From assembly GCA_029565065.1 (NCBI GenBank), contig JAKQOW010000036.1, forward strand, positions 59,846 to 123,845: DNA of 64,000 nt, read 5' to 3'. Source of the stretch: Acidobacteriota bacterium (GTDB lineage Bacteria > Acidobacteriota > JAAYUB01). Position numbers and translations under genes: made by a program. Under the pieces are notes generated by a model. That model was not told the origin of the DNA, searched no databases, and was given only the letters and a program-made list of their open reading frames with translations. How positions within the stretch are numbered: position 1 is the stretch's first letter; the number at the start of each line of letters is the position of its first letter. Of this stretch, positions 9,046-58,474 are shown piece after piece.

Positions 9046-9546
9046 ATGGGACATTCGAACATCGTCCTGTACGAAGAGGAATACCAGCAGATCAAGACCA
9101 TCCTGGGCCGCCTCAATCAGGAGGCCAATGCCCGGGTGGTGTTCCTCGTGGACAAGAACGGCCAGCAGATCGCGGCCTGCGGCGAGATCGAGAACCTCGA
9201 TACGACCTCGCTCGCGTCCCTCACCGCCGGCAATGTCGCGGCCACCGACGGCCTGGCCAAGCTCATTGGTGAGAAGGAATTCTCCATCCTGTTCCACGAG
9301 GGCGAACGCGACAACATCCACATCTCCTTGGTGGGCAAGCGCGTAATCCTGGTTATCATTTTTGACGAACGGTCCTCGCTCGGCCTGGTCCGGCTGCGCG
9401 TCAAGCGCGCCTCGATCGAGCTGGAGCGGGTCTTCGACACGATCGTCAAGAAGGTGGAGATGGAACGCCAGGCTCAGGAGACCGGCACCGCTTCACCGTT
9501 CGCCGAAATCACGGACGAGGACATCGACAACCTGTTTTCCAGCTGA
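9046..9546 (+). CDS. mglB: Roadblock/LC7-domain protein, MglB-like (GAP partner of MglA)
   Basis: 166 aa Roadblock/LC7 fold; immediately upstream (24-nt gap) of mglA; promoter-like TTGAAA-17-TAAGAT upstream. Confidence 0.7.
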   Translation: MGHSNIVLYEEEYQQIKTILGRLNQEANARVVFLVDKNGQQIAACGEIENLDTTSLASLTAGNVAATDGLAKLIGEKEFSILFHEGERDNIHISLVGKRVILVIIFDERSSLGLVRLRVKRASIELERVFDTIVKKVEMERQAQETGTASPFAEITDEDIDNLFSS

Positions 9547-9570
9547 TTTTGCGGGTAAAAGGGACCGACT

Positions 9571-10161
9571 TTGACTTTCATCAACTACGCTTCGCGGGAA
9601 ATCAATTGTAAAATTGTATATTACGGCCCCGGCCTGGGCGGGAAGACCACCAATATCCAGTACATCTACGACACCACCAACTCCGACTCCAAAGGCAAGC
9701 TCATCTCGCTGGCGACCGAAACCGACCGCACCCTGTTCTTCGACTTCCTGCCGCTGGACCTGGGCACCATCCGCGGCTTCAAGACCCGCTTCCACCTGTA
9801 CACCGTACCGGGCCAGGTGTTCTACGACGCGTCGCGCAAGCTCATCCTCAAGGGCGTCGACGGCATCGTCTTCGTCGCCGACTCGCAGGACGAGCGGATG
9901 GACGCCAACATCGAGAGCATCTCGAACCTGAAAATCAACCTCGTGGAGAACGGGTTCGACATCAACGCCATCCCGTACGTCCTGCAGCTCAACAAGCGCG
10001 ACCTGCCCAACATCACGAACATCGACGACATGGTGCAGGAGCTCAAGGTTCGGGACGAGCCCATCTTCGAGGCGGTGGCCATCAAGGGCGTCGGCGTCAT
10101 GGAAACGCTCAAGGCGGTGGCCAAGCAGGTGATCATGGAACTCAAGCGGGGCGGCAAGTAG
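9571..10161 (+). CDS. mglA: Ras-like small GTPase MglA (gliding/polarity GTPase)
   Basis: KIVYYGPGLGGKTTN P-loop, LYTVPGQVFY switch II; 196 aa, size and motifs typical of MglA. Confidence 0.85.
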   Translation: MTFINYASREINCKIVYYGPGLGGKTTNIQYIYDTTNSDSKGKLISLATETDRTLFFDFLPLDLGTIRGFKTRFHLYTVPGQVFYDASRKLILKGVDGIVFVADSQDERMDANIESISNLKINLVENGFDINAIPYVLQLNKRDLPNITNIDDMVQELKVRDEPIFEAVAIKGVGVMETLKAVAKQVIMELKRGGK

Positions 10162-12134: not shown

Positions 12135-12731
12135 CTAGCGGGGGCCGTCAGGCCCCCTTTTGTTTTCCCCTTGCGCCTGCCCCAGGAACGCCGCCTCATT
12201 GACCGCCAGCAACGCCGGCTTCACAATCTGCCGCAACGCCTGCCGGATGTCCTCGTGCGTCAGCACGAACGGATGCGCGTCCATGAACCGGCCCAGCAGG
12301 ACCAGGTTGGCGATGCGCGGCTGCCCGAGCCGCAGGGCGACGGCATCGGCGTCGTGGACAAACACACGGTAGCCGGCAGCCGCCAGCCGGCGGACCTCCG
12401 GTGCGTCCGGATCCGGATGATTCAGGACCACCTGTCCGCCGGGTCGCAGCTGTCGCAGGTGGGTATACAGTTCGGAGCGTTCCAGCACGAACAGGGTGTC
12501 CACGCTGCCCGGGAACAGCACGGGAGAGCGGAAGGCGCCGATCTTCAGTGAACTGTACACCGAGCCGCCCCGCTGACTCATTCCGTGTATCTCATACGTG
12601 AAGACGGGCCGGTCCTGGATCTGGGCGGCGGCGTACAGGAGCCGGCTCAGGAAGAGCACGCCCTGTCCGCCCAGGCCGGCGATGAGAATCTGGTGGTCCA
12701 CCCGCTCCTCCTTGAGAACCGGCGTGTTCAT
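12135..12731 (-). CDS. iorB: Indolepyruvate:ferredoxin oxidoreductase beta subunit IorB
   Basis: ILIAGLGGQGVLFLSRLL pyruvate/2-ketoacid oxidoreductase gamma-type domain; ATG (complement 12729-12731) overlaps iorA stop as ATGA. Confidence 0.75.
   Translation of the reverse strand: MNTPVLKEERVDHQILIAGLGGQGVLFLSRLLYAAAQIQDRPVFTYEIHGMSQRGGSVYSSLKIGAFRSPVLFPGSVDTLFVLERSELYTHLRQLRPGGQVVLNHPDPDAPEVRRLAAAGYRVFVHDADAVALRLGQPRIANLVLLGRFMDAHPFVLTHEDIRQALRQIVKPALLAVNEAAFLGQAQGENKRGPDGPR
12139..12168 (+). terminator. Rho-independent terminator after ferredoxin gene
   Basis: GGGGGCC-GTCA-GGCCCCC perfect hairpin followed by TTTTGTTTT; overlaps last codons of iorB on the opposite strand. Confidence 0.7.
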
Positions 12732-14550
12732 GGCTGCTCCCGGATCGCCCCGGACGGGCAGACGGCGATGCAGTTCCCGCACTGGGCGCAGATCCGGCGG
12801 TCAATGCCTGCCTTGCCGTCGGGGGTGGCGATGATCGCCGGGCACTGGAACACGTTCATGCAGACCTTGCAGCCGGTGCAGGCGGCCGGATCGACCGTCA
12901 CGGGACGTTTCACGGGCACGCCGCCCCTGGGATCGTTGAGTACGCACGGATGCCGGAAGATCAGCACGGCGACGCCGCCGTCGGGCTGCCGGGTGAATGC
13001 GTGCGCCGCCCGCAGCGCCTCGATGCACGCGTCCATCGCGTAGGGGTCGCGGATCTCCAGGAAGCGCACGCCGCAGCCCCGGACGGCCTCCTCGAGCCGG
13101 ACCGGCCGGCCCGGCGTGCCGTCGATCCGCGCGCCGGTGGAGACGGCGGGCTGCATGCCGGTCATCGCCGTCACCTCGTTGTCCAGGATGACCACGATGA
13201 TCCGGCTGTCGTTGTACACCGCGTTGGCCAGCTGCGGCAGGCCGGAATGCAGGAACGTCGAATCGCCGATGGTGGCCACGACGGGCTGCTCCCGGCCGTC
13301 CTGGCGGTAGGCCTGGTGGATGCCCATGGCCAGGCCGATGGAGGCGCCCATGACCAGCACCGTGTCCACCGCCTTCATGTTGACGCCCAGGGTGTAGCAG
13401 CCGATGTCCCCGGTGTAGATGCCCTTGGGCAGCGCCTTGCGGATGGCGTGGAACGAGTTGCGGTGGGGGCAGGCCGGACAGAGCGTCGGCCGCCGGGCCG
13501 GCGCCGGGGCCGGATTCTCCGGGACCGTGATCGACACGGCAGGCCGATCGAGGAACCGGCCGAGTATCTCGTCGAGCCGCTGGCCGTCGATCTCCCCTTC
13601 GGCGGGCACCCAGCCGTCGAGGCGGCCGGATATGCGGCCGCGATCGGCGATCTGTTGTTCGATCACCGGACCCGTCTCCTCCAGGACCAGCACCCGCTCG
13701 TGCTGGCCGATGAACGCCGCCACCGGTCCGGCGGGGAACGGAAAGGCGCAGCCCAAGTGGAGCAGGGGCAGCGACAGGCCGCGGCCCGCCGCCCAGTCCT
13801 GGATCATGCCGCGGAGCACCCCGCCGGCGATGATGCCGCGGGCGCCCTCGCCCGGGTCGGCCCAGGTGAGCGCCCGCTCGCTCTCGATATGGGCGCGGAT
13901 CGCCTCCAGCTTCCGGTTCAGCTCCCGGTGCAGCTCCAGGCGGTACTTCGGTGTGGCGGCCCACCGGTTGGGATTTTTGACGAACGCCGCCGGCGGGCAG
14001 GCGTCGATCGCAGTGTCCAGCGACACGGTCTGGCGGGCGTGGCACACCCGCAGCGAGGGGCGCAGGATCACCGGGATCTCGAAGCGCTCCGACAGGGCCA
14101 CCGCCAGCTTGGCGTAGGCGCAGGCTTCCTGCGGGGTGGCCGGGTCCAGGACCGGCACCTTGGCGAACTGGGCGAAAGCGCGCGTGTCCTGTTCGGTCTG
14201 GGAGGAATAGGGGCCGGGATCGTCGGCGCTAACGATCACGAAGCCGCCCTGGCACCCGGTGTACGCCGAACTCATGAGCGCGTCGGCGGCGACGTTGAGC
14301 CCCACCTGCTTCATGATCGTGGCGCTGCGCTTGCCAGCGTAGGAAGCCCCCAGGGCCACCTGGAAGGCGACCATCTCGTTGAGCGACCACTCGACGGCGA
14401 CCTCGGCGCCCAGCTCGGAACGGATGGCGAGGACGGCCGGGAGGATCTCGGAGCTGGGCGTGCCCGGGTACGAGGTCACCACCTGGCAGCCGCCGGTCGC
14501 CAACCCCCAGGCGACCGCCTCGTTACCCATGAGAACGCGTTGATCCGGCA
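12728..14550 (-). CDS. iorA: Indolepyruvate:ferredoxin oxidoreductase alpha subunit IorA (TPP-dependent, two C-terminal 4Fe-4S clusters)
   Basis: Start MPDQRVLMGNEAVAWG; TPP region GDIGCYTLG; C-terminal CTGCKVC...CPAII and CAQCGNCIAVCP ferredoxin motifs. Confidence 0.8.
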
Positions 14551-14683
14551 TCGGTGGCTCCTGAAGGACGATCTGAAACGGTCGGGGCGCGCTGGAAATC
14601 TCATTAAAACAGAACGCTGGGCCCAAACAAAGAAAAATATTGTTGCGATCCCGTCCCCCCGTTATCATACCTGCGGATCGGCC

Positions 14684-15511
14684 ATGCACCCAGACCTGAC
14701 CTCAACTTACCGGGACGTGATGCCCGGCGTCCGGAGCCGGTTGGACGCCGCCGAACTCCGGCGCCGCCTCGCCGCGGCGGACGTCGCTGTCCTGGACGTG
14801 GACGAGTGCATGATGCCCGGCTACGCCCAGATCGCCCTCGGCCACCGCCTGTTGCGGGATGCGCCGGGCGCCGGTGGCCCGGCCGGTCCGCGCGTCATCC
14901 GCGCCGGGCGGCTGATCGCGCTGGGAGCCTGTCTGTACGGGCTCAAGCTGCTGCCCGGCGACCCGGTCCGCAAGAACCTTCGCCTCCACACCCTGTACGG
15001 GCTAGCGCTCCGGGGCATCGAGCGCGCTGCGTTCCGACGGGTCATGCCGGACGTGTGGCGAACCGTGTACCCGGAGGTCCGGCCCTGCCTGCGCCGCCTG
15101 GCCGGACGGCGGCCCGTCGGCGTCATCTCGCTGGGCCTCGACTGCCTGCTCGACGGCCTCAGTGCGGCGCTGGCCGAGGGCGGGGAGCCGATCCCGTTCC
15201 GCTTTCTCGAGGGGAACCGCATCGTCTGGCTGAACGACCGGTTCGCCGGCCTGGCCGCGCCGATCTGCCACGGACCGCTGGACAAGGCGGCAGTCTACGA
15301 GACGGAAGCGGCGCGCCATGGCTGGCGCACGCCGCTGGTGATCGGCCACAACGCCGACGAGACGGAGCTGTGCGCCATCGCCGGTTCAGCCGGCGGACTC
15401 AGTGTCGGCATCGGCGCCCGGCCGGCCCACCGGGACCGGTTCCACGTGCTGCTGCCCCGGGGGGCGTGGGGCCTGCTGGAGGAATTCCTCCGCGCCTACG
15501 ATGTGGAGTGA
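14684..15511 (+). CDS. Hypothetical protein (275 aa), divergent from iorA
   Basis: C-terminal part of long ORF 12950..15511; only the segment from ATG 14684 is non-antisense; no recognisable motif. Confidence 0.45.
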   Translation: MHPDLTSTYRDVMPGVRSRLDAAELRRRLAAADVAVLDVDECMMPGYAQIALGHRLLRDAPGAGGPAGPRVIRAGRLIALGACLYGLKLLPGDPVRKNLRLHTLYGLALRGIERAAFRRVMPDVWRTVYPEVRPCLRRLAGRRPVGVISLGLDCLLDGLSAALAEGGEPIPFRFLEGNRIVWLNDRFAGLAAPICHGPLDKAAVYETEAARHGWRTPLVIGHNADETELCAIAGSAGGLSVGIGARPAHRDRFHVLLPRGAWGLLEEFLRAYDVE

Positions 15512-15530
15512 GCGGTCGTGCGATCGCTGA

Positions 15531-15570
15531 AAAAAAACAGGGCGGCCGGTGCGGCCGCCCTGTGGTTTTG
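15531..15570. terminator. Bidirectional terminator between hypothetical gene (+) and aor (-)
   Basis: AAAAAAAA-CAGGGCGGCCG-GTGC-GGCCGCCCTG-TGGTTTT. Confidence 0.65.
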
Positions 15571-15586
15571 GAGACAGGTCAATCGT

Positions 15587-17764
15587 TTAGCGCAGGTGGC
15601 GCTCCACCACGGCCAGGACCTCAGGCAGATCCATGCCGATCTTGCGGAGATGCTCGGGCGTGGGTACGCCTTCGGACGTCCAGCCTTTGCGCTTGTAGAC
15701 GGCATTCAGCAGGTGCTGGTACTGCTCCTCGCGGTAGTGGCGCAGGATTCTGAGTTTTTCCTCGCTGCTCTTGCCGGCGGGATCGACGCCCACTTTTTCG
15801 CGCAGTTGCTGATCGTACCGATCCTGCCGTGATTCATACTCCTCGACGGTGACCGGGCCCATCATGCGGAACGGCGGGATATCGTCGCTGCGTCGGCCGC
15901 GCCCCAGTCGCATGCAGAGGACTTTCTGGAAGTTGTACACGCGCTCCGATTGCAGGATCAGCTCCTTCTTGTTGAGGTTCCCGCCGGTGATGGCGTTGTA
16001 GATGTCGACGTAGTTCTGGACATGCTCCGGCACCTTGGCCGGTTCATCGGTCTGGGCGTTGTTGGCGGGTTCCACGTCGTTCCAGGGCAGCTTGCACAGG
16101 CCCTGCAGCCCGAACCAGGTCCGGAACATGGGGAAGTAGTGAAGCGCTTCGGCCTTGTCGGTGAAGGTGGGGATCTGGTTGTTGACCATGTCCATGAAGA
16201 TCAGCCAGGCCTCGTCGTGCTGCGGGCCCTTGAGCGCCATGCTGTAACCGCCCTGCTGGGCCAGCGATTCCTTGGAAACGTACTGGGAATATTCGAGGCC
16301 CTTGCACTCGCAGCCGATGTCCTGCATGAGCTGGGGATCGGCGTCGAAATGATCGATGAAATACTCCTTCATCTTCCGGGTTCCCAGCCCGGCGATGAGA
16401 CCGAACCCTTCGCCCCGGGCGATCTGGTGCATCATCTCCAGCGTGTCCCGCCAGTTCCCCCAGGTGAAATCCAGGCCGCCCGTGCGCTCGGCGTTGAGCA
16501 CGCCTTTCTCCCAGCATTCCATGATGAAGGCGGTCATCGTGCCGAAGGAGATGGTGTCCAGGCCGTAAGTGTCGCAGTAGAAGTTGATCTCCATGATGGC
16601 GCGGGGATTGAATATGCCGACGTTGGAGCCGCAGCCGCCCACGGTCTCGTATTCGGGGCCGTCGACGGTGACGCGCTGCCCCTGGTAGGGGCCGGTCACC
16701 AGCTCGAAGCCGTCCGCCGCCTTGGCGCAGGCCATGGTGCAGCCGAACCAGCAGCCGTCGGGCAGCCCGTGAGTGACGAGCTCGTAGAAGGCGTGCGAAT
16801 TGATTTTGGGCGAGTCGGCGTGCCGGCCGAACTTGAAGTTGTGCGTGGGCAGCAGATCGTACTCGTCCATGATCTCGACGAGGTGGGCGGTACCGATCTG
16901 GCGCATCCGGCATTGCTGGTCGTCCAGGGCGATGATCTCCTTGTGGAGCTTCAGGCCGGTGCGCTGGAGCGTGTCCAGGTCGGCGGGATCGTTGGACTTG
17001 CCCGACAGGCCCGAATACTTGACCACGACCGCCTTGATCTTCTTGTCGCGGAGCACCGTTCCGATGCCCCCGCGGCCGGCCTGCTTGAGCCGCGCCACCT
17101 TGCGGCGCCGGTCATAGAAGGAGAAGTTCAGGCACCCGATCAGGGCGTGCTCGGCGCCGCGGCCGGCGCTCACCGCGGAGATGTGCATTTTCTCAAGATC
17201 GTTGTCGGCGAACAGCTCCACCATCTGCTCGGCCAGGATGTGGCTGTCCACCGCTTCGGCGGGGGCCTCGAAGATCTGGATCAGCCCCTGGTTGCCGTCG
17301 ATGTACACGATGACGTCGCGCTCGGCCTTGCCCTGGATCTCGATGGCGTCGAAGCCGGAGAACTTCAGGTAGGGGCCGAAATAGCCGCCCACGTTGCTGT
17401 CGATGGGAATGTCGGTGAGCGGAGAGATCGAGACCACCAGCGATTTCCCCGAACCCGGGTAGTTGGTGTTGCCGCAGATGGGCCCCATGGCGATGTTGAT
17501 CTCGTTCTCGGGATCGTTCCAGCGAGTGGTGTCGGAGATCGCGTCCCAAAGCAGCTTCAGGCCGAAACCCTTGCCTCCGGTGAACTTCTGCTTCATTTCC
17601 TCGGAGACCGGTTTTTCCCGGATCTCGTTCGACGAGACGTTCACATACAGCGTGCGCATGTTGTAGCCGCGCACCACCGGCCGGAGCTCGTAGCGGAATT
17701 CCTTGAGCAGAACGTGCCGGGCCTTCAGGGCGTCGACGTCGGTGTGGATCTTGGTGTTGTTCAT
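15587..17764 (-). CDS. aor: Tungsten-containing aldehyde:ferredoxin oxidoreductase (AOR family)
   Basis: N-terminal AOR_N domain (MRTLYVNVSSNEIREKPV...KFTGGKGFGLKLLWD) starting at internal ATG complement 17762-17764; large AOR C-domain; 726 aa. Confidence 0.85.
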   Translation of the reverse strand: MNNTKIHTDVDALKARHVLLKEFRYELRPVVRGYNMRTLYVNVSSNEIREKPVSEEMKQKFTGGKGFGLKLLWDAISDTTRWNDPENEINIAMGPICGNTNYPGSGKSLVVSISPLTDIPIDSNVGGYFGPYLKFSGFDAIEIQGKAERDVIVYIDGNQGLIQIFEAPAEAVDSHILAEQMVELFADNDLEKMHISAVSAGRGAEHALIGCLNFSFYDRRRKVARLKQAGRGGIGTVLRDKKIKAVVVKYSGLSGKSNDPADLDTLQRTGLKLHKEIIALDDQQCRMRQIGTAHLVEIMDEYDLLPTHNFKFGRHADSPKINSHAFYELVTHGLPDGCWFGCTMACAKAADGFELVTGPYQGQRVTVDGPEYETVGGCGSNVGIFNPRAIMEINFYCDTYGLDTISFGTMTAFIMECWEKGVLNAERTGGLDFTWGNWRDTLEMMHQIARGEGFGLIAGLGTRKMKEYFIDHFDADPQLMQDIGCECKGLEYSQYVSKESLAQQGGYSMALKGPQHDEAWLIFMDMVNNQIPTFTDKAEALHYFPMFRTWFGLQGLCKLPWNDVEPANNAQTDEPAKVPEHVQNYVDIYNAITGGNLNKKELILQSERVYNFQKVLCMRLGRGRRSDDIPPFRMMGPVTVEEYESRQDRYDQQLREKVGVDPAGKSSEEKLRILRHYREEQYQHLLNAVYKRKGWTSEGVPTPEHLRKIGMDLPEVLAVVERHLR

Positions 17765-17769
17765 GGTTG

Positions 17770-18162
17770 CTACTCCTCGGTCACGATCTCGATCGCCTGA
17801 GTGGGGCAGCCCTTGACACAGACGCCGCATGCCACGCACTTGAAGGGATTCAACACGCCGTCGCACCGCCGCATGGCGTCGATGGGACAAACGGCCACGC
17901 AGGCGAAACAGCTGATGCACAGCTTCTTGTTGATCATCACCACGCCCTGCTTGTTGATGGTGATGGCCTGAGTGGGGCATTCATCGACGCATTTGCGGTA
18001 CTGCTGGTCGCAGACCACCAGGTGATACCCTCCGTCGGGCTTCTCGATGACCTGGATGGCCGACTTGGCGGGGATGTCCTCTTTGAAGAACGCCATGGAA
18101 CAGGCCGTCATGCACTGGTTGCAGCCGATGCATTTCTCGTCGTAGGTTTTGAGATACTTCAT
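17770..18162 (-). CDS. 4Fe-4S polyferredoxin (AOR-associated electron carrier)
   Basis: Multiple CxxCxxCxxxCP motifs (CIGCNQCMTAC, CISCFACVAVCP, CVACGVCVKGCP); ends 5 nt before aor start. Confidence 0.85.
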   Translation of the reverse strand: MKYLKTYDEKCIGCNQCMTACSMAFFKEDIPAKSAIQVIEKPDGGYHLVVCDQQYRKCVDECPTQAITINKQGVVMINKKLCISCFACVAVCPIDAMRRCDGVLNPFKCVACGVCVKGCPTQAIEIVTEE

Positions 18163-43965: not shown

Positions 43966-45432
43966 ATGACCATGTTTGAACAAGCTTTCAAGAATATTGA
44001 CGATGTGCTTTGGAAGGATGCCGGGTGTACCAGTGAACTGGATTACACCGAGCAGACTTCCTGGCTGCTATTCCTGAAATACCTCGATGCACTGGAGGCC
44101 GACCGTGCCACGGCTGCCGCCCTGAACGGCAAGACCTACACCCACATTCTGGATAAACCATACCGCTGGGGCTCCTGGGCCGCGCCGAGGGGCAAGGATG
44201 GCTCGATTGACCACAACACCGCTCTAACCGGCGACGACCTGATCCAGTTCGTCAACGGCAAGCTTTTCCCTTACCTGCACGGCTTCAAGCAGAAGGCTAG
44301 CGGGCCGAACACGGTCGAATACAAGATCGGCGAGATTTTCGGCGAGATCAAGAACCGCATCCAGAGCGGCTACAACCTACGCGAGGTCATTGACCAAATT
44401 GATGAACTGCGCTTCGCGTCGCAAGTTGAGAAGCACGAGCTTTCGCACCTGTACGAGGCGAAGATCAAGAACATGGGCAACGCCGGGCGCAACGGCGGCG
44501 AGTATTACACCCCGCGCCCGCTCATCCGCGCCATCGTGGCGGTGGTCGCGCCCAAGCTCGGCGAGACCATCTGCGACCCGGCGGTCGGCTCGGCGGGCTT
44601 CCTGTGCGAGGCATTCGAATATCTCAAGGCTCAGAACCCGAAGCGCACCACCGCCCAGGACCGCGCCTTGCAGGAGCGCACCTTCTTCGGCAAGGAAAAG
44701 AAGTCGCTGGCCTACGTCATCGCGATCATGAACATGATCCTGCACGGCATCGAGGCGCCCAACATCCTCCACGTCAACACGCTGGCCGAGAACCTGGCCG
44801 ACGTGCAGGAAAAGGACCGATTCGACATCATCCTCGCCAATCCGCCTTTTGGCGGCAAGGAGCGCAAGGAGGTCCAGCAGAACTTCCCAATTCGCACCGG
44901 TGAAACGGCTTTTCTCTTCCTCCAGCACTTCATCAAGGTACTCAAGGCCGGCGGCCGGGCGGGGATCGTCATCAAGAATACGTTTCTGAGCAACACCGAC
45001 AATGCCTCCGTAAGCCTGCGGCGGAAACTGCTGGAGGAATGCAACCTGCATACCGTGCTCGACTGCCCCGGCGGCACGTTCCAGGGCGCGGGCGTGAAGA
45101 CCGTGGTGCTGTTTTTCGAGAAGGGCGCGAAGACCAGGAAGGTGTGGTACTACCAACTCGACCCCGGCCGCAGCCTCGGCAAGACCAACCCGCTCAATGA
45201 TGACGACCTCGCCGAGTTCGTGCAGCTCCAGAAGACCTTCGCCGACTCACCCAAGAGCTGGAGCGTTGACGCCAATTATATTGATCCGACCACTTTCGAC
45301 CTCTCCGTGAAGAACCCCAACGGCGGCGAGACCGTGACCCACCGCAGTCCGCAGGAGATCATGGAAGAAATCGCCGTCCTAGACATCGAAAGCGCTGAGG
45401 TGCTGGAGAAGATCAGGGGGCTGCTGAAATGA
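43966..45432 (+). CDS. hsdM: Type I restriction-modification system, DNA methyltransferase subunit M (N6-adenine)
   Basis: HsdM N-domain; SAM-binding DPAVGSAGFL; catalytic NPPFG motif. Confidence 0.9.
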   Translation: MTMFEQAFKNIDDVLWKDAGCTSELDYTEQTSWLLFLKYLDALEADRATAAALNGKTYTHILDKPYRWGSWAAPRGKDGSIDHNTALTGDDLIQFVNGKLFPYLHGFKQKASGPNTVEYKIGEIFGEIKNRIQSGYNLREVIDQIDELRFASQVEKHELSHLYEAKIKNMGNAGRNGGEYYTPRPLIRAIVAVVAPKLGETICDPAVGSAGFLCEAFEYLKAQNPKRTTAQDRALQERTFFGKEKKSLAYVIAIMNMILHGIEAPNILHVNTLAENLADVQEKDRFDIILANPPFGGKERKEVQQNFPIRTGETAFLFLQHFIKVLKAGGRAGIVIKNTFLSNTDNASVSLRRKLLEECNLHTVLDCPGGTFQGAGVKTVVLFFEKGAKTRKVWYYQLDPGRSLGKTNPLNDDDLAEFVQLQKTFADSPKSWSVDANYIDPTTFDLSVKNPNGGETVTHRSPQEIMEEIAVLDIESAEVLEKIRGLLK

Positions 45433-46571
45433 AGAAGGGGTGGGAAACGAGGCGTATCGATGAGCTTTGCATAGTGGTCGCCGGGCAATCGCCGGAGGGG
45501 AAGTTCTATAACTCCGAGGGTCGGGGCCTTCCGTTCTATCAAGGTAAAAAGGACTTTGGGGAAAAGTTCATCGAGGCACCCACCACTTGGACAACGCAGA
45601 CGACCAAGATTGCCAAACAGGGCGATATCTTGATGTCCGTCCGCGCACCTGTTGGCCCTGTGAATTTTTCCACCGAGGAAATCTGCATTGGGCGCGGATT
45701 AGCTGCGATACGCTGCGGGACACAACTGAATCGAGATTTTCTTTTCTACCAGTTGCTCCACTTACAGCCTGAGATTGCTGGGAAAGAAGGCGCAGTGTTC
45801 GCATCAATCAACAAATCCGAAATCGAAGCCTTGCCGCTCGCGTTTACCCCGCTCCCCGAACAGCAGCGGATCGTGGGGGTATTGGATGAAACTTTTGCTG
45901 GTCTGGCCACCGCCCAAGCCAACGCCGAAAAGAACCTCCTGAACGCCCGCGCCCTATTCGAAAGCCACATGAATGACGTGTTCAGCAAGCGGGGCGAAGG
46001 GTGGGTGGAGAAGACGTTGGGGAAAATCGGCAAGGTCTCCATGTGCAAGAGAATCTTCAAGGAGGAGACGACAGCGACCGGAGACATTCCATTCTACAAG
46101 ATTGGGACTTTCGGAAAAGAGCCCGATGCATTCATTTCAAGCCAAACCTACAATGAATACAGGGCGAGATACCCCTTTCCTAAAAAAGGCGATATTCTTA
46201 TCTCGGCGTCGGGAACAATCGGGCGACGCGTCAGATACGACGGTGAACCCGCATATTTTCAGGACTCGAATATCGTCTGGATTGATAACGATGAAAGACA
46301 GGTGTCGAACGACTACCTGTATCACTTCTACGGAGCCTGTGAGTGGAACTCGACGAAAGGCGCTACCATATCGCGACTCTACAATGACAATCTGAGGCAA
46401 ATCGCTATTGCATTCCCTGAATCGAGTCAGGAGCAGCGGCGGATTGTCACCCAACTCGACTCCCTCTCCGCCGAAACCCGCCGCTTGGCCGCCATCTACG
46501 AGCGGAAGCTGGCGGCGCTGGAGACGCTGAAGAAATCGCTTCTACATCAGGCGTTTAACGGAGAACTGTGA
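45429..46571 (+). CDS. hsdS: Type I restriction-modification system, specificity subunit S
   Basis: Overlaps hsdM by ATGA; two target-recognition domains separated by a conserved central helix (LPEQQRIVGVLDETFAGLATAQANAEKN) and C-terminal helix (QEQRRIVTQLDSLSAETRRLAAIYERK). Confidence 0.85.
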   Translation: MKKGWETRRIDELCIVVAGQSPEGKFYNSEGRGLPFYQGKKDFGEKFIEAPTTWTTQTTKIAKQGDILMSVRAPVGPVNFSTEEICIGRGLAAIRCGTQLNRDFLFYQLLHLQPEIAGKEGAVFASINKSEIEALPLAFTPLPEQQRIVGVLDETFAGLATAQANAEKNLLNARALFESHMNDVFSKRGEGWVEKTLGKIGKVSMCKRIFKEETTATGDIPFYKIGTFGKEPDAFISSQTYNEYRARYPFPKKGDILISASGTIGRRVRYDGEPAYFQDSNIVWIDNDERQVSNDYLYHFYGACEWNSTKGATISRLYNDNLRQIAIAFPESSQEQRRIVTQLDSLSAETRRLAAIYERKLAALETLKKSLLHQAFNGEL

Positions 46572-46572
46572 C

Positions 46573-47496
46573 ATGAAAAGCTACTACCGAGTCATGTTGG
46601 GTGAAAAGAGCAAGTATGCCGAGGAGTGTTTTGCAGCGAACTGCATTGCCGCCGGCTTCATCCCTGATCAGAACTTGAAAGGAAAGTTGCCCGATCAATG
46701 GCGCACCTTCAATAAACAGTTTATTCCCGTGTTCCTCGCCGCTCATCCGGAGAAAACAAAAATCGGTGCAGGGCTAGCTTGTGGCGCGTTGTGGACGGTA
46801 TGCAAAGGGATGCAAAATGGCGATATAGTCTTATGTCCTGACGGCACGGGCAGATACCGGGCCGGTGAAATCAGTGGCGATTACTTTTATGAGCCCAGCA
46901 AGCACTTGTGCCATAGACGGCCTGTGACTTGGCTGAACGTGATGATTGACCGGGCCACGATGAGTGAGCCGCTGCGCAAATCCACCGGTTCAATCGGCAC
47001 GGTGAGCAACATCACGCTGCACCGCGATGAAATTGAAAAGCACACCGGCGGCGTTTCAACTCCGAAACTAATTTCCACCGACACCACAGTTGAGGACGCC
47101 TCTGCTTTCGCATTAGAAGAGCATTTGGAGGATTTCCTCGTCAAAAATTGGTCTCACACCGAACTCGGCAAAGATTACACAATTTACGAGGAGGACGGAG
47201 AGAAAGCACAGCAATACCAGACCGACACAGGACCGTTGGACATCCTCGCGATCAGCAAGGACAAAAAACATCTGTTGGTTGTGGAGTTGAAAAAGGGACG
47301 GGCCAGTGATCTGGTGGTCGGACAGACTCTCCGCTACATGAGCTTCGTCCAGGATGAATTGGCTGAGGAGGGACAGACAGTGCGGGGGTTGATAATCGCT
47401 CACGAGGACGATCAAAAAATCCGGCGCGCCCTCAGCATGACACCCAACATTTCCTTCTATCGCTACCAAGTCAGTTTCAAGTTAATGAAGGGATGA
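46573..47496 (+). CDS. Embedded cassette gene A: hypothetical protein with C-terminal PD-(D/E)xK (NucS/Mrr-cat-like) nuclease motif
   Basis: GPLDILAISKDKKHLLVVELKKGRASDLVVGQTLRYMSF ... VRGLIIAHEDD fits D-x(n)-E-L-K nuclease core; N-terminal ~150-aa domain of unknown function; starts 2 nt after hsdS stop. Confidence 0.6.
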   Translation: MKSYYRVMLGEKSKYAEECFAANCIAAGFIPDQNLKGKLPDQWRTFNKQFIPVFLAAHPEKTKIGAGLACGALWTVCKGMQNGDIVLCPDGTGRYRAGEISGDYFYEPSKHLCHRRPVTWLNVMIDRATMSEPLRKSTGSIGTVSNITLHRDEIEKHTGGVSTPKLISTDTTVEDASAFALEEHLEDFLVKNWSHTELGKDYTIYEEDGEKAQQYQTDTGPLDILAISKDKKHLLVVELKKGRASDLVVGQTLRYMSFVQDELAEEGQTVRGLIIAHEDDQKIRRALSMTPNISFYRYQVSFKLMKG

Positions 47497-47497
47497 C

Positions 47498-47593
47498 ATG
47501 AACGAAGCTGAAACGAGAGCCGAGCATATTGATCCCGCGCTGGCGGCGTTGAAGAAGTCGCTGCTGCTCCTGGCCTTTGCAGGAGAACTGTGA
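47498..47593 (+). pseudogene. Chimeric remnant: 51-nt hsdR 5' fragment (MNEAETRAEHIDPALAA) fused to 45-nt hsdS 3' fragment (LKKSLLLLAFAGEL-stop)
   Basis: 47498-47548 is 47/51 nt identical (all 4 differences synonymous) to hsdR start at 48391-48441. 47549-47593 parallels the hsdS 3' end at 46527-46571 (LKKSLLHQAFNGEL-stop). Confidence 0.8.
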
Positions 47594-48375
47594 TGAATAT
47601 GAAGAAATACTGCTACGACACAGAACCGATAGCCGGAATTGAGAAGCTGTGTGAGCGAATGACGGGGAAGGCGTTACAGTCTCCGTATCGTTCCACTGTG
47701 CCTTTACTGAGCCTCGTTGAACACAGTCAGCCTGAATGGCATTCGCTATTGGCGTCGTTGGGGACGCCGCCTGACCGAACGGTCCACTTTGAATACTGCA
47801 TCGCCTCGCCAAAGCCTGGAGGAAATCCGTCACAGACAGACGCCCTGCTGATGTCAGATTCAACTGTGTGGGCCGTTGAGGCGAAGTGGACAGAACCTCG
47901 GTATGAAACAGTGGCGAAAAGAATAAGCAAACCAGAGTCGGACGGCGCTGATCCGCGAACCACGGTTGATGGCTGGCTGAAATATCTCCAGCCGTTTACA
48001 ACACGAGATTTGCGCGTCGATGACTTTTTGGATGTGGTATATCAAGTATTGCATCGCGCCGCATCGGCGTGTGCTGTCGCAACCGATCTGCAACTCTCGC
48101 CGCACCTTGTGTATCTGCATTTTCATCCATCCCCGCTGGAGAGTTCCGCGACGACCGATCAGTATGTCTCGGACCTTCAGCATCTATATGCGTTGCTCGG
48201 CAATCCCTCCACCCTGAAGATCACCGTGGTTGAAATGCCGCTCAAGCCGACTGCGGAATTTGATGCCATCAAGGGTCTGGATAAGCGAGATCCAGGATCT
48301 GCCGCTGTGGTGAAAGCGGCGCTGTGCAAAGAGCCATTATTTACTTTCGGAAGCCCGATCATTACGCGATCATGA
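47593..48375 (+). CDS. Embedded cassette gene B: hypothetical protein with PD-(D/E)xK restriction-endonuclease-like core
   Basis: HFEYCIASPKPGGNPSQTDALLMSDSTVWAVEAKWTE contains E...D...E-A-K pattern; start overlaps remnant stop (TGATG). Confidence 0.55.
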   Translation: MNMKKYCYDTEPIAGIEKLCERMTGKALQSPYRSTVPLLSLVEHSQPEWHSLLASLGTPPDRTVHFEYCIASPKPGGNPSQTDALLMSDSTVWAVEAKWTEPRYETVAKRISKPESDGADPRTTVDGWLKYLQPFTTRDLRVDDFLDVVYQVLHRAASACAVATDLQLSPHLVYLHFHPSPLESSATTDQYVSDLQHLYALLGNPSTLKITVVEMPLKPTAEFDAIKGLDKRDPGSAAVVKAALCKEPLFTFGSPIITRS

Positions 48376-48390
48376 GGTCAGATCTCACGC

Positions 48391-50718
48391 ATGAACGAAG
48401 CCGAAACCAGAGCCGAGCACATTGACCCCGCGCTGGCGGCGGCGGGCTGGGGCGTCGTGGAGGGCAGCCGCGTGAGGCGGGAGTTTCCCATCACGCCGGG
48501 GCGCATCGAGGGGCTGGGCCGGCGCGGAAAGCCGCTGACCGCCGATTACGTTCTGGAATACCGCAACCGCAAACTGGCCGTAATCGAGGCCAAGGCGTGG
48601 GATCAAGAGTTGACCGAAGGAGTGGCGCAGGGCAAGAACTACGCGGGCAAGCTGCAGGTGCGCTTTGTCTATGCCACAAACGGGCGGGGCATCTACGCGA
48701 TAGACATGCAGACGGGCAAGGAAGGCGAGATCGCCGCCTACCCAACCCCGGACGAACTCTGGGCGATGACCTTTGCCGAGGAGAACGCCTGGCGGGACCG
48801 GTTCGCGGCGGTGCCGTACGAGGACAAGGGCGGCTCGCATCCGACGCGTTACTACCAGGACATCGCCATCGAGCGGGTGATGCAGGCCATTTCGGAGAAC
48901 CGGACGCGCATCCTGCTGACGCTGGCCACCGGAACGGGGAAAACCTTCATCGCATTCCAGATCGCGTGGAAGCTGTTCCATGCGCGCTGGAACCTCTCCC
49001 GCGAACCGACGCGCCGGCCGCGCATCCTGTTCTTGGCCGACCGGAACATCCTGGCGAACCAGGCTTACAACGCCTTCTCCGCCTTCCCCGAGGACGCGCT
49101 GGTGCGGATCGAGCCGGGCGACATCCGCAAGAAAGGCAAGGTGCCGAAGAACGGCAGCCTGTTTTTCACCATCTTCCAGACGTTCATGAGTGGTCCGCCC
49201 AAGGACGGCCGACCGTCACCCTATTTCGGCGAATACCCGCCGGACTTCTTCGACTTTATCGTGATTGATGAGTGCCATCGCGGCGGGGCGAACGACGAGA
49301 GCACCTGGCGTGGCATCCTGGACTACTTCGCGCCCGCCGTGCAGCTCGGCCTCACCGCCACACCCAAGCGCGATGAGAACGTGAACACCTACCGCTATTT
49401 CGGCGAGCCGGTCTATATGTATTCGCTCAAGGACGGGATCAACGACGGCTTCCTGACCCCGTTCAAGGTGAAGCAGATCCAGACCACGCTGGACGAGTAC
49501 GTGTACACGCCGGACGACACGGTGATCGAAGGCGAGATCGAGGAGGGCAAGCGGTACGAAGAGGCGGACTTCAACCGCATCATCGAGATCAGGAAACGCG
49601 AGGAATACCGGGTCAGAATCTTCATGGATCTGATCAACCAGAACGAGAAGACGCTGGTGTTCTGCGCGAACCAGGCCCACGCCCTGGCCGTGCGCGACCT
49701 CGTCAACCAGCTGAAGACCAGCAAGGACCCGAACTACTGCCAGCGGGTGACGGCGAACGACGGTGAGCTGGGCGAGCAGCATTTGCGCGACTTCCAGGAC
49801 AACGAGAAGACGATCCCGATGGTCCTGACCACGTCACAGAAGCTCTCGACGGGGGTGGACGCTCGGAACATCCGCAACATCGTCCTGATGCGGCCCATCA
49901 ACCGGCTCATCGAGTTCAAACAGATCATCGGGCGCGGCACCCGGCTCTATGACGGCAAAGATTACTTCACGATCTACGACTTCGTGAATGCGCACGAGCA
50001 TTTCAGCGATTCTGGGTGGGACGGCGAGCCGATGGCCCCGGAACCGCACGAGATCTATCCGCCGCACGAACCGAGCCTGGCAGGCGAAGTGCGGGAACCC
50101 AGGGAGAAATATCCAAAACGCCAGCGGGTGAAAGTGAAACTGGCGGACGGCAAGGAGCGCACCATCCAGCACATGATGATGACGAGCTTCTGGCATCCCG
50201 ACGGCACGCCCATGTCCGCGCAGCAGTTCATGGAACTGCTCTTCGGAAAGCTCCCGTACTTCTTCAAGGACGAAGCCGAACTCCGGGCCATTTGGAGTGC
50301 GCCTGACACGCGCAAAAAGTTATTGCAGGGCTTGGCCGAGAAGGGCTTCGGGCATGACCAACTGGCTGAGATGCAGACGATCATCGACGCCGAGAAGAGC
50401 GATCTGTTCGACGTGCTCGCCCATGTTGCCTACGCCTTGCCGCCCGTCACGCGTGAAGTCCGCGCCGCGAATGCGAGAGTTCACATCAATACCCGTTTCA
50501 GCGACAAGCAGAAGGTGTTCCTCGATTTCGTGCTCCAGCATTACATCACGGTCGGCGTGGAAGAGCTCGATCAAGAAAAGCTTACCCCGCTGCTCCTGCT
50601 CAAGTACCACAATTCCCTGGCGGATGCCGTTGCCGACCTGGGCGGCCGGCCCGAAGAGATAAGCAAAGCCTTCGCCGGGTTCCAGAAATATCTCTATCAG
50701 CAAACGTCTGCGGCATGA
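48391..50718 (+). CDS. hsdR: Type I restriction enzyme, R subunit (nuclease plus SF2 helicase)
   Basis: N-terminal nuclease motif LAVIEAKAW; Walker A LATGTGKT; DEAH-like VIDECHR; motif VI QIIGRGTRL. Confidence 0.9.
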   Translation: MNEAETRAEHIDPALAAAGWGVVEGSRVRREFPITPGRIEGLGRRGKPLTADYVLEYRNRKLAVIEAKAWDQELTEGVAQGKNYAGKLQVRFVYATNGRGIYAIDMQTGKEGEIAAYPTPDELWAMTFAEENAWRDRFAAVPYEDKGGSHPTRYYQDIAIERVMQAISENRTRILLTLATGTGKTFIAFQIAWKLFHARWNLSREPTRRPRILFLADRNILANQAYNAFSAFPEDALVRIEPGDIRKKGKVPKNGSLFFTIFQTFMSGPPKDGRPSPYFGEYPPDFFDFIVIDECHRGGANDESTWRGILDYFAPAVQLGLTATPKRDENVNTYRYFGEPVYMYSLKDGINDGFLTPFKVKQIQTTLDEYVYTPDDTVIEGEIEEGKRYEEADFNRIIEIRKREEYRVRIFMDLINQNEKTLVFCANQAHALAVRDLVNQLKTSKDPNYCQRVTANDGELGEQHLRDFQDNEKTIPMVLTTSQKLSTGVDARNIRNIVLMRPINRLIEFKQIIGRGTRLYDGKDYFTIYDFVNAHEHFSDSGWDGEPMAPEPHEIYPPHEPSLAGEVREPREKYPKRQRVKVKLADGKERTIQHMMMTSFWHPDGTPMSAQQFMELLFGKLPYFFKDEAELRAIWSAPDTRKKLLQGLAEKGFGHDQLAEMQTIIDAEKSDLFDVLAHVAYALPPVTREVRAANARVHINTRFSDKQKVFLDFVLQHYITVGVEELDQEKLTPLLLLKYHNSLADAVADLGGRPEEISKAFAGFQKYLYQQTSAA

Positions 50719-53285: not shown

Positions 53286-53954
53286 ATGGCCATGACTCTC
53301 CAGGAAGCGCTGGCGCGGCTCGAGGCAATGGGGGACGAGAAGGTGCGGAAGCACAACCGCAAGAGCGGCGCCGGCGACGACCAGTACGGCGTCCGGCTGG
53401 GCGACATCCGCAAGCTCGCTGCGACGATCAAGGCCGACCATGCACTCGCCCTGGCGCTCTGGGAAACGGGGAACATCGACGCCCGGCTCCTGGCCGTCCT
53501 GCTGCTCAAGCCGAAGGAACTGTCCCGCGATCAGGTGGACCGGCTGGTGCGCTCCGGCGACTTCGCCCAGTTGGCCGACTGGCTGAACGCCTACGTGGTC
53601 CAGAAACATCCCGAGAAGGAATCGCTCCGCCAGCGGTGGCTGGCGGACGCCGACCCGTGGGCGGCGCGCGCCGGCTGGAGCCTGACCTACGAACGGATCA
53701 CCCGGGATCCGGCCGGGCTCGACCTGCCGGCGCTCCTGGACCGGCTCGAGGCGGAGATGGGGGGCGCCCCGCCGCCCGCGCAGTGGACCATGAATTTCTG
53801 CCTCGGCGGGATCGGCATCCACTTCCCCGAGCATCGCCGGCGGGCGGTGGCCATCGGCGAGACGCTCGGGCTCTACCGCGACTACCCGGTCTCCAAGGGC
53901 TGCACCTCGCCGTACGTCCCGGCCTGGATCGCCGAGATGGTGCGCCGGCTTTAG
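53286..53954 (+). CDS. DNA alkylation repair enzyme (AlkD/AlkC-like HEAT-repeat glycosylase family)
   Basis: GAAGGAG RBS; helical repeat protein with ...DIRKLAATIKADHALALALWETGNIDARLLAVLLL... characteristic of the DNA_alkylation family. Confidence 0.65.
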   Translation: MAMTLQEALARLEAMGDEKVRKHNRKSGAGDDQYGVRLGDIRKLAATIKADHALALALWETGNIDARLLAVLLLKPKELSRDQVDRLVRSGDFAQLADWLNAYVVQKHPEKESLRQRWLADADPWAARAGWSLTYERITRDPAGLDLPALLDRLEAEMGGAPPPAQWTMNFCLGGIGIHFPEHRRRAVAIGETLGLYRDYPVSKGCTSPYVPAWIAEMVRRL

Positions 53955-54303
53955 ATAGCGCGGGCCGGCCGCGGCCCGCGCTCTGGAGTGCGGCGGCTGG
54001 ACGCCGCTTTGGATTCCGGAACAGATTACGGATTTGAGAGTGCGAATATCGGAAGGTAGCCAAAGACGCGACCCGCGTCCATCCAGAGCGCAGTCGAGCC
54101 TGCGCACTCCAGAGCGCTCGCGCGCTATCCAAAGCGCAGTTGGGCCTGCGCCGGTTGCCTGTGTGCCTGACCAAGCCGGTGAACCTGAAATCCCCCGATC
54201 ATGGGTTGAACTCCGCGGCTGCGGCGCAGCCGAACCGGCGTGCGGATTTGCGGCCTCAACACGAGATGGGCTCAAATTCCTGTCACCCAGATGAGGTCAG
54301 GAT

Positions 54304-54354
54304 TGGACAACAGATGTTCCTCCCTTATAATGAACCTACCGTCGAAAAATCGAC
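54304..54354 (+). promoter_or_regulatory. Near-consensus sigma70 promoter TTGGAC-17-TATAAT followed by palindrome GTCGAAAAATCGAC (candidate redox-regulator operator) upstream of peroxiredoxin
   Basis: -35 at 54304-54309, -10 at 54327-54332, inverted repeat at 54341-54354. Confidence 0.5.
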
Positions 54355-54394
54355 ACGCCCGATGCGTGCACAACCTCACTTCCGAGGAGGCGAC

Positions 54395-55111
54395 ATGGCG
54401 GACAAAAAACCACAAGGCTGCGTGCAGCCGGCGGCGGGGCCCATCGCCCCGAAGCCCGGACCCGAGGCGGTTCCGGCGGCCGGCGAAGCGCCGCGAAAGG
54501 AGGCGACCGTGAGCGTGATGGTCGGCAAGCCGGCCCCCGATTTCGAGGCGTCGGCCTTCCACGAGGGGAACTTCAAGAACATCAAGCTGTCCGACTTCAA
54601 GGGCCAGTGGGTGATGCTCTGTTTCTACCCCGGCGATTTCACCTTCGTCTGACCCACCGAATTGGCGGCGGTCGCCGCCAAAGCCGACGAATTCCGCAAG
54701 CTGGGCGTCCAGGTGCTCTCCTGCAGCACCGACAGCCGGTTCATCCACAAGATGTGGCAGGAGCACGAGCTGGCCAAGATGGTGCCGGGCGGCTTCCCGT
54801 TCCCCATGCTCTCCGACGCCGGGGGGCGGATCGGGACGATCTACGGGATCTTCGACGAGGCCGGCGGCGTGGACGTGCGCGGCCGCTTCCTCATCGATCC
54901 GGACGGCATCGTCCAGGCCATCGAGATCCTGACGCCCCCGGTGGGCCGCAAGATCACCGAGGCCATCCGGCAGGTGCACGCCTACCAGCACGTCCGGGCC
55001 ACCGGCGGCGCCGAGGTGTGCCCCGCCGGCTGGGAACCGGGCCAGCCCACTCTCAAGGTGGGTCCCGACCTGGTGGGCAACGTCTGGAAGATTTGGAAGC
55101 CCAAGGAATAG
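54395..55111 (+). CDS. 2-Cys peroxiredoxin (AhpC/Prx1 family) with in-frame TGA at the peroxidatic Cys position: predicted selenocysteine-containing peroxiredoxin (PrxU-like)
   Basis: ORFs 54140..54652 and 54662..55111 are in the same frame. Joined read-through gives ...[24 protein letters not shown]...; canonical motif is FTFVCPTE. Resolving Cys EVCPAGW retained. Alternative start ATG 54518 ([11 protein letters not shown]) with AAAGGAGG RBS. Confidence 0.75.
54664..54679 (+). promoter_or_regulatory. Candidate bacterial SECIS hairpin 12 nt downstream of the UGA
   Basis: GGCGGC-GGUC-GCCGCC; apical loop contains GU; spacing from UGA (54650-54652) consistent with bSECIS. Confidence 0.55.
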
Positions 55112-55180
55112 AAGAACCGCATTTTGCAAGCAAACGCCGCCCGGTCCCGGATCCCTGCGGGCAACGGACACGAGCGGGAT

Positions 55181-55218
55181 AAAAAAGCGGGGCCTGGCAT
55201 CCAGGCCCCGCTTGTTTT
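55181..55218. terminator. Bidirectional terminator between peroxiredoxin (+) and katG (-)
   Basis: AAAAAA-GCGGGGCCTGG-CATC-CAGGCCCCGC-TTGTTTT. Confidence 0.7.
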
Positions 55219-55273
55219 GGGTCAGCCGGCTGCGCCGCCCGGGGCGCAGCCCATGGGGACGGAACGATTGCGA

Positions 55274-57469
<2,196 letters not shown>

Positions 57470-57552: not shown

Positions 57553-58011
57553 TCAGTCGCTCCCCTGGCAGTCCCGGCAGATCCCGAAGAAGTCCAGCCG
57601 GTGGGTGAGGATCCGGAAGCCCGTCTCCGCGGCGACCTCCTGGGTCAGGTCGTGCAGGCTGCTCAAGTCCGGATCGAAGATGGCGCCGCACCGCGTGCAG
57701 ATTAGGTGGGGGTGCGGGTACGGCCGGTGGCCGTCGTATCGATTGCCCCGGTCGGCAAACCCCAGTTCCAGCACCTCGCCGATTTCCTTCAGCACGGCGA
57801 TGGTCTTGTAGATCGTGGCCAGGCTGACGGTGGGGAAGCGGGCGTGGACCTTGGCGTAAACGGCCTCGACGCTGGGGTGGCCTTCGCTCCGGGACAGCAC
57901 CTCGAGCACCGCCAGGCGCTGCGGGGTGACGCGGAAACCCCGCGCCCGTAATTTCTCCAGCATCTGGCTGCGACGGGATCGGCTCTCGGATTCAGACTTG
58001 TGGGTGTGCAT
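57553..58011 (-). CDS. Fur-family transcriptional regulator (PerR-like, adjacent to katG)
   Basis: DNA-binding helix TPQRLAVLEVL; metal sites HPHLICTRCG and CRDCQG (Cys4); alternative start at internal MLEKLRARG (57963). Confidence 0.8.
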   Translation of the reverse strand: MHTHKSESESRSRRSQMLEKLRARGFRVTPQRLAVLEVLSRSEGHPSVEAVYAKVHARFPTVSLATIYKTIAVLKEIGEVLELGFADRGNRYDGHRPYPHPHLICTRCGAIFDPDLSSLHDLTQEVAAETGFRILTHRLDFFGICRDCQGSD

Positions 58012-58045
58012 GGTATCAAGCTATCAACTGGCAGATGATTAGTCA

Positions 58046-58073
58046 ATAATTATTATTTTAAAATAATTATTAT
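58046..58073. promoter_or_regulatory. AT-rich Fur/PerR-box-like inverted repeat upstream of the Fur-family gene
   Basis: ATAATTATTATTTT|AAAATAATTATTAT, 13/14 matched arms, in an otherwise GC-rich genome. Confidence 0.55.
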
Positions 58074-58474
58074 TTATAATACGGGGATTGAATCCTGCTG
58101 CTCCCGCGGGTTGAATTGCATTGTCTGCGGGGAGGGGTATTGAATAATCTGTTTGAAATAAAAAAACGGTGTGCTCATCGGCGTGATCGCCATCGTCCAC
58201 GTGTTCATGTCCCACGTCGCCTCAAGTTGTGGAAAATTTTCTCCGCCCCGCATCAGGCGTGACGGAAGCGTCCGACTGACGAGACGGAACCGGCCGAACG
58301 GATCATTCTCGCCATCCGGCCACCGGGCGGGGCTGGGATGCCGCAGCCCGCGGTGGCCCCGGGCTCCTATCCGCGCGGGCAATTAAAATTCGTGCGGACA
58401 AATCAACCGTTTACCGCTATGCTGAGGGCACATTCTGCGGTCGGAATGGAACCGTCTGACCTGGAGTTCATCGG

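Follow-up and report, generated by a model that had tools for sequence, protein, structure and literature searches.

A predicted selenocysteine-containing PrxU peroxiredoxin, with a covarying hairpin after its in-frame UGA, in an uncultured Acidobacteriota bacterium

A single reading frame with TGA at the peroxidatic position

The 64,000-nt stretch of DNA examined here (hereafter, the window) comes from an uncultured Acidobacteriota bacterium (GenBank assembly GCA_029565065.1, contig JAKQOW010000036.1, positions 59,846 to 123,845 of the forward strand), and its + strand carries at 54395-55111 a candidate selenoprotein gene, here called prxU. Translation of this gene gave a single frame of 238 codons, closed by TAG at 55109-55111, in which the only internal stop codon is one TGA at 54650-54652. 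The open reading frame (ORF) list contains two pieces in this frame, one on each side of the TGA, the first ending at 54652 and the second restarting at 54662; translation and ORF list thus agree with an initial annotation, made from the sequence alone, which had described two same-frame ORFs parted only by this codon. Read across the TGA, the frame gives FYPGDFTFV-[TGA]-PTELAAV, and the stop codon occupies residue 86, the peroxidatic residue of the active-site motif P-x-x-x-T-x-x-U (P79-G-D-F-T83-F-V-U86, where U is selenocysteine, Sec). When the stop codon was read as Cys, Pfam AhpC-TSA matched residues 43-175 (E = 1e-36) and 1-cysPrx_C matched the C-terminus of the product, so that the context proposed earlier for a Sec in place of the peroxidatic Cys, FTFV-[UGA]-PTE, was borne out. 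TGA is the usual stop codon of the genes in the window (27/37), and we therefore conclude that the code is not reassigned genome-wide. The codon at residue 86, which is kept in homologues, is read here as Sec86.

Upstream of the gene lies a predicted sigma-70-like promoter (TGGACA, 16 nt, TATAAT; 54304-54331, + strand) with 11/12 consensus matches, and a Shine-Dalgarno sequence, GAGGAGG, could be read at 54384-54390 (+ strand), 4 nt before the ATG. When the five acidobacterial lineages described in the next section were compared, the promoter (TTGGAC...TATAAT) was kept in four of them, while AGGAGG and the ATG were invariant in all five, which supports the start at 54395. The first 41 residues (54395-54517, + strand) form an N-terminal extension that is covered by the PrxU profile and contains a G-C-x-Q-P motif, with Cys9 encoded at 54419-54421. 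The canonical resolving Cys, residue 209 (55019-55021, + strand), lies in an intact EVCPAGW motif, and is kept in 5/5 lineages. A bidirectional intrinsic terminator at 55185-55213, whose 13-bp stem includes 10 G-C pairs and which has a run of T on each strand, separates prxU on the + strand from katG on the - strand. Weak Rfam matches to small RNAs were dismissed as spurious, as they are explained by this terminator.

Conservation of the gene on both sides of the TGA

In a protein search, we recovered five clusters, each of exactly 149 residues and 87-99% identical, that cover only the part of the product after the TGA, and every one of these relatives is preceded on its contig by an AhpC-TSA fragment of 85 residues. 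At the DNA level, five acidobacterial lineages, assembled independently and from different samples, were compared (the window with L001-L003; L004-L009; L010-L013; L014; L015). All five (87-100% identical) carry the TGA at the same codon, without any other stop or frameshift. By the Nei-Gojobori method, the ratio of nonsynonymous to synonymous substitution (dN/dS) came to 0.03-0.12 in the core that precedes the TGA and to 0.09-0.19 over the 152 codons that follow it; dS reached 0.6-2 relative to L015, and the N-terminal extension gave a dN/dS of 0.13 relative to this most distant lineage. The low values after the TGA indicate that the region downstream of the UGA is translated and constrained. 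Judged by these substitution patterns, prxU is a functional gene under purifying selection on both sides of the TGA, and no pseudogene, as the initial annotation had also held.

Were the locus instead a pseudogene or the source of a truncated product, an inactive 85-residue peptide would be made, and the 149-codon ORF, beginning with TTG at 54662, would be left untranslated or expressed separately. This is how public gene calls present it, since they split prxU into 85 and 149 residues on every contig examined, or else render the TGA as Trp, and TGA is after all this genome's usual stop codon. However, such a split would sever the thioredoxin fold just ahead of the catalytic residue, and the constraint after the TGA, together with the lack of further stops or frameshifts in five lineages, is not what a decaying gene would display. 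The same codon is TGA in at least 36 genomes from many phyla, a pattern that independent decay would not give, and a covarying hairpin follows the TGA in TGA forms only (see below). Relatives combining the interruption with further disabling mutations, which had been named at the outset as the sign of a pseudogene, were found in none of the five lineages, and we regard decay or truncation as highly improbable.

Exact look-ups of the read-through sequence, with residue 86 given as X, W or C, gave no match in a collection of 15 billion sequences. The same 85-residue N-terminal fragment (P0131, in a 90% identity cluster) is also found on a 5,003,342-bp NCBI contig, which represents the essentially complete genome of a closely related organism.

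A covarying hairpin downstream of the UGA

The hairpin GGCGGC-GGUC-GCCGCC begins 11 nt past the TGA, at 54664. Folding extended its stem to 8 bp (UUGGCGGC/GCCGCCAA), with 54662-54669 paired to 54674-54681 on the + strand around the loop GGUC (54670-54673), in which the conserved G-U lies at 54671-54672 and the G at 54671 is 19 nt after the UGA. As a general rule, bacterial selenocysteine insertion sequence (SECIS) elements have a stem of 6-8 bp and carry a conserved G in the loop, ∼20 nt downstream of the UGA (PMC4605307), and the prxU hairpin, with its 8-bp stem inside the coding sequence, has this geometry. Since folding energy alone cannot support a hairpin in G+C-rich DNA, covariation across homologues was used to evaluate it.

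For this, 39 distinct TGA-containing sequences were aligned without gaps from -9 to +54 nt around the TGA (alignment A2), and in the structure scored, columns 22-29 pair with columns 34-41 to form the stem, and the additional pair 30:33 flanks the loop. The hairpin was present in the same register in 38 of the 39 sequences, with the loop GGUC in 21 and AGUU in 17, and 84.6% of cells paired for the scored structure. The covariation score was 0.431, compared with 0.153 ± 0.019 for shuffles, none of 500 of which reached 0.431, although related sequences can outscore shuffles without any structure. When the pairing partners were slid by 1-3 columns, the score was at most 0.151, and this control, together with the kind of changes seen, argues against kinship as the explanation. 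Pair 24:39, which links codons +4 and +9 at their wobble positions, occurs as all four Watson-Crick types (GC 14, UA 8, CG 7, AU 5), while pair 27:36 (wobbles of codons +5 and +8) is GC in 25 and AU in 12, and pair 30:33 (wobbles of codons +6 and +7) is GC in 21 and AU in 17. Because this Watson-Crick covariation falls at synonymous positions, selection on the protein cannot explain it. RNAalifold independently recovered the four most variable pairs, and in two of the acidobacterial lineages, L014 and L015, one G-C pair has been converted to U-A through changes in both arms. In the loop, U32 is invariant (39/39) and G31 is identical in 38/39, with the flanking loop bases covarying.

The DNA also had to be considered as a possible source of both features, with the TGA a miscalled or misassembled TGC or TGT, from which it is one base away, and the hairpin a by-product of G+C-rich codons for Ala-Ala-Val-Ala-Ala. 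Codon usage alone makes GCG-GCG-GTC-GCC-GCC nearly palindromic, and the z-score of the fold is unremarkable. As for the TGA, it recurs identically on 15 or more contigs, which come from independent samples and assemblers (ENA, JGI, Logan, NCBI), and error at this codon was rejected on account of these independent assemblies. As for the near-palindromic codons, Cys-form homologues served as the control. Four of them, L101 from Aggregatilinea (TGC), L102 (TGT), and L051 and L052 from Holophaga (both TGC), have neither the stem nor the G-U loop, even where a similar peptide is encoded, as in L101 with T-A-V-A-S. Conversely, AT-rich genomes retain the hairpin through different codons (UCAGC-AGUU-GCUGA). 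We consider the probability of this explanation to be negligible. Alignment with PrxU and with Cys-containing orthologues, which the initial annotation had put forward as a check, thus found the UGA and the hairpin conserved in PrxU, and the hairpin absent from the four Cys forms. The SECIS-like hairpin with a GU loop that had been noticed just 3' of the UGA is, on this comparative evidence, a SECIS element, covarying and specific to UGA forms, to which SelB is predicted to bind.

The sole TGA-type PrxU locus listed without the consensus hairpin is L047, from a Syntrophaceticus metagenome-assembled genome (MAG), which has UUGUCACA-CAUA-GCUGUACG with a loop lacking G-U. The gene may be decaying, or it may rely on another kind of SECIS.

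Membership in the PrxU family and distribution of TGA-type genes

The read-through protein scored 379.9 bits against the NCBIfam equivalog NF040737 'peroxi_PrxU' (cutoff 270), with residues 7-237 covering profile positions 2-232 of 233, N-terminal extension included. This full-length match above cutoff placed the product in the family that had been suggested for it, a PrxU-type selenoprotein. The score against AhpC proper (TIGR03137) was 186.6 bits, below the cutoff of 272, and no AhpF-like gene was found in the window or its flanks; on these two grounds, identification of the product as the AhpC of an AhpC/AhpF system was rejected.

Among the 120 database proteins closest to the product, the peroxidatic position is 'W' in 79 and Cys in 28. 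One gene of the 'W' type was checked in DNA, on the P0001 contig, and the codon there is TGA, from which we conclude that the database 'W' (FTFVWPTE, e.g., P0010, P0126, P0001) is an artefact of gene callers switching to a TGA-sense code. Species-representative genomes were also scanned for PrxU-type loci, the counts being those of matches listed and hence lower bounds. At least 36 PrxU-type loci (52-66% identity) have TGA at the peroxidatic codon, and these are nearly all of the PrxU-type loci listed. Their hosts are found in Syntrophales, several Desulfobacterota, Anaerolineae, Chloroflexia, Spirochaetes, and Synergistales, as well as in Clostridia, Halanaerobiales, Pirellulales, Caldithrix, and others. 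A Sec-containing peroxiredoxin family confined to "a few anaerobes", as the initial annotation had it, is not compatible with TGA in 79 of the 120 closest homologues and in nearly all PrxU-type loci listed. The Sec-PrxU family is already known and widespread: Sec-Prx (TxxU) is listed among the experimentally verified families on account of PrxU from Eubacterium acidaminophilum (PMC13188914), where the founding member, from Eubacterium/Peptoclostridium acidaminophilum, is cited to Sohling et al. (2001), and a survey in 2006 put the number of Sec-Prx genes at 12 and that of selenoproteins in Acidobacteria at 4 (PMC1794560).

Two candidate resolving cysteines

The claim that the resolving Cys is intact in EVCPAGW was correct for the window, but this is not the norm for the family. 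Most PrxU members lack the resolving Cys (as in E-V-T-P-S-G-W) and have Thr, Ala or Met at its position, and the canonical C-terminal Cys is kept in only one of the 35 listed TGA-type loci (L030) and in 3/79 'W' matches. The Cys of the N-terminal extension is, by comparison, conserved as G-C-x-[R/Q/K]-P (CxxP) in 29 of the 35 listed TGA-type loci, and in 56 of the 60 'W' matches that have an extension. Both Cys9 and Cys209 are present in the lineage of the window, a combination shared among the 35 listed loci by L030 only. It is possible, though on balance doubtful, that the Cys9-type extension Cys is the physiological resolving residue of PrxU, forming a selenenyl-sulfide with Sec86 and so standing in for the C-terminal Cys that most members lack. 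We know of no described peroxiredoxin subclass with a resolving Cys at an N-terminal position like that of Cys9. If this role for Cys9 were correct, the acidobacterial lineage with both cysteines would be an evolutionary intermediate or the user of a dual route.

Selenocysteine machinery and the identity of the inserted residue

ARAGORN detected no tRNA in the 64-kb window. None of selA, selB or selD was found by Pfam among 30 window ORFs scanned, including every ORF of the size of SelA, SelB or SelD, nor in the ∼10 kb past each window end, and neither the flanks nor 39 related loci yielded a tRNA-Sec. When the window and the related loci were scanned for genes split by TGA, only prxU was returned; two other candidates with in-frame TGA turned out to be true stops, with the next gene starting in the same frame.

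Several results weigh against a Sec-containing product. There is no second selenoprotein gene in the window, and the folding energy of the hairpin is unexceptional for its 65% G+C sequence (z = -0.12 compared with dinucleotide shuffles). Rfam gave no SECIS match, either with gathering thresholds across the whole window or with E <= 10 over 54300-55300. Last, the sel genes and tRNA-Sec are absent from the ∼82 kb searched, although in a genome of several Mb this absence, like that of a second selenoprotein gene, is uninformative. We infer that the Sec machinery is encoded elsewhere in this genome.

A related question is which amino acid is inserted, since the comparative data reveal read-through of the UGA and the importance of the hairpin, but are silent on this point. 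If a selC* tRNACys acting with a SelB paralogue, or an acidobacterial allo-tRNA, decoded the UGA with Cys or another residue, then the product, in the case of Cys, would be an ordinary Cys peroxiredoxin. There is precedent in the selC* tRNACys with an opal anticodon, and the selB* gene, of delta-proteobacteria, and allo-tRNAs of Acidobacteria have been proposed as possible nonsense suppressors (PMC5389517). However, the same study reports no selC* from Acidobacteria, and wherever selC* did occur, the complete Sec apparatus was present too (PMC5389517). The loop features of the prxU hairpin are those of SECIS elements bound by SelB, and the founding member of the family is listed among selenoproteins with experimental verification (PMC13188914). 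Decoding with a residue other than Sec is therefore improbable in our estimation.

The oxidative-stress neighborhood of prxU

The genes around prxU are, in order, a gene of unknown function whose product has 176 residues, an AlkD-like gene, prxU, the convergent katG, and a Fur-family gene. Profile matches confirmed the composition of the cluster given in the initial annotation (AlkD-like, Prx, KatG, PerR-like). The AlkD-like DNA_alkylation repair protein is encoded upstream of prxU at 53286-53954 on the + strand (PF08713, E = 1e-20), the catalase-peroxidase KatG at 55274-57457 on the - strand (TIGR00198, 1243 bits), and the Fur-family, PerR-like regulator at 57553-58011 on the - strand (PF01475), for which the best NCBIfam match was PerR with 122.7 bits, short of the cutoff of 180. 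The KatG and Fur-family proteins have the same sequences as HOB51132.1 and HOB51133.1 of an Acidobacteriota MAG, and the region recurs in several metagenomes, on contigs 103-483 kb long.

In every lineage with flanks, the AlkD-like gene is located upstream of prxU; the two are adjacent in the window, L001, and L004, while inserted genes separate them in L010-L014. The adjacency of katG and prxU, and the core of the cluster, are likewise kept in the related lineages with flanks. From this gene order, we propose that prxU, katG, and the PerR-like regulator form a conserved peroxide-defense cluster.

An AT-rich palindrome resembling a Per/Fur box, TAATTATTATTTTAAAATAATTATTA, is located at 58047-58072, upstream of the Fur/PerR-like gene. 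It contains two overlapping matches (0.02 expected by chance) to the PerR-box consensus of Bacillus. The palindrome suggests that the Fur/PerR-like gene might be autoregulated. A search with the consensus found no PerR box at the prxU promoter. Genes for cytochrome bd oxidase subunit I and a partner follow directly after the Fur/PerR-like gene in L004 (13537-16124) and L010 (13556-16143), and the window has no cytochrome bd genes at that place (∼58012-58474).

Other features of the window

A type I restriction-modification system (HsdM, HsdS, DUF8426/NucS-like, DUF6946, HsdR) is encoded at ∼43966-50718. In the window and in L001 it is located between a peptidase S9 gene and the gene for the 176-residue protein, but it is absent from the same place in L004 and L010, and we therefore consider it a variable defense island. 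Farther away, at 9046-10161, a gene for a Roadblock/LC7 protein is followed by one for a small Arf/Ras-like GTPase, resembling an MglB/MglA pair, which adjoins a gene for an FHA-domain protein (7886-8932). A cluster of anaerobic oxidoreductases at 12135-17980 contains subunits of a 2-oxoacid:ferredoxin oxidoreductase (POR, POR_N/TPP_enzyme_C/Fer4) and an aldehyde:ferredoxin oxidoreductase of 797 residues, ∼100 of which form an N-terminal extension, and a rubrerythrin gene is found in the right flank (L096, 14823-15329). The oxidoreductase cluster and rubrerythrin point to an anaerobic or microaerophilic lifestyle.

Discussion

Taken together, the sequence comparisons described above make it very probable that 54395-55111 encodes a Sec-containing, thioredoxin-dependent PrxU peroxiredoxin of this uncultured Acidobacteriota bacterium, with Sec insertion and enzymatic activity as predicted properties, and with "thioredoxin-dependent" taken from the name of the family. 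A plausible course of events would begin with transcription of prxU mRNA from the sigma-70-type promoter, and with translation from its strong Shine-Dalgarno site. By analogy with established Sec decoding in bacteria, SelB carrying Sec-tRNASec would bind the hairpin as the ribosome reaches the UGA, Sec would be inserted at residue 86, and translation would continue to the TAG at 55109. In the finished protein, Sec86 in its P-x-x-x-T-x-x-U site would attack peroxide and become a selenenic acid, which would be resolved by a Cys, either the canonical Cys209 of the other subunit or the N-terminal Cys9 peculiar to the family, and thioredoxin would presumably then reduce the peroxiredoxin. The steps that we infer in this scheme are the presence of SelB and tRNASec in the genome, the insertion of selenium, the reductant, and the identity of the resolving Cys.

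The prxU gene described here is a newly found, mis-annotated member of a known selenoprotein family. It leaves knowledge of Sec decoding and of peroxiredoxins unchanged, but it adds the Acidobacteriota to the hosts of PrxU. Annotation of such genes as split, or with the UGA read as Trp, hides both a selenoprotein and the selenium dependence of peroxide defense, in this case in Acidobacteriota from anaerobic digesters and sediments. The alignment of 39 sequences leaves the PrxU SECIS well defined, with a 6-bp core stem, an N-G-U-N' loop, and covarying flanks, and this element, which matches no Rfam family, could be made into a covariance model for finding genes of this kind.

Three known systems provide points of comparison. 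The prxU hairpin is like the SECIS of E. coli fdhF (whose sequence was checked against 5,419 E. coli genomes) in lying directly 3' of the UGA within the coding sequence, and in having an identical GGUC apical loop. It differs from the fdhF element in that its loop G-U is one nt nearer to the UGA (G22 U23, compared with G23 U24 in fdhF, counted from the U of UGA), and in that its stem is a perfect 8-bp helix without a bulged U; the two share no sequence similarity beyond the loop. With the typical 2-Cys peroxiredoxins AhpC/Prx1 (PF00578, TIGR03137), the prxU product shares the fold, the active-site motif, the 1-cysPrx_C region, and the resolving Cys in E-V-C-P-x-G-W, but it is predicted to have Sec in place of the peroxidatic Cys, it carries a 41-residue N-terminal extension, and its gene has no AhpF nearby. 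With PrxU itself (NF040737), it has in common the UGA at the peroxidatic position of P-x-x-x-T-x-x-U, an N-terminal extension bearing the conserved Cys, and the register and loop features of the SECIS hairpin. What sets it apart from other PrxU members is its host phylum, Acidobacteriota, the retention in the lineage of the window of the C-terminal resolving Cys (EVCPAGW) that most members have lost, and an adjacency to katG and a PerR-like gene that is specific to this lineage.

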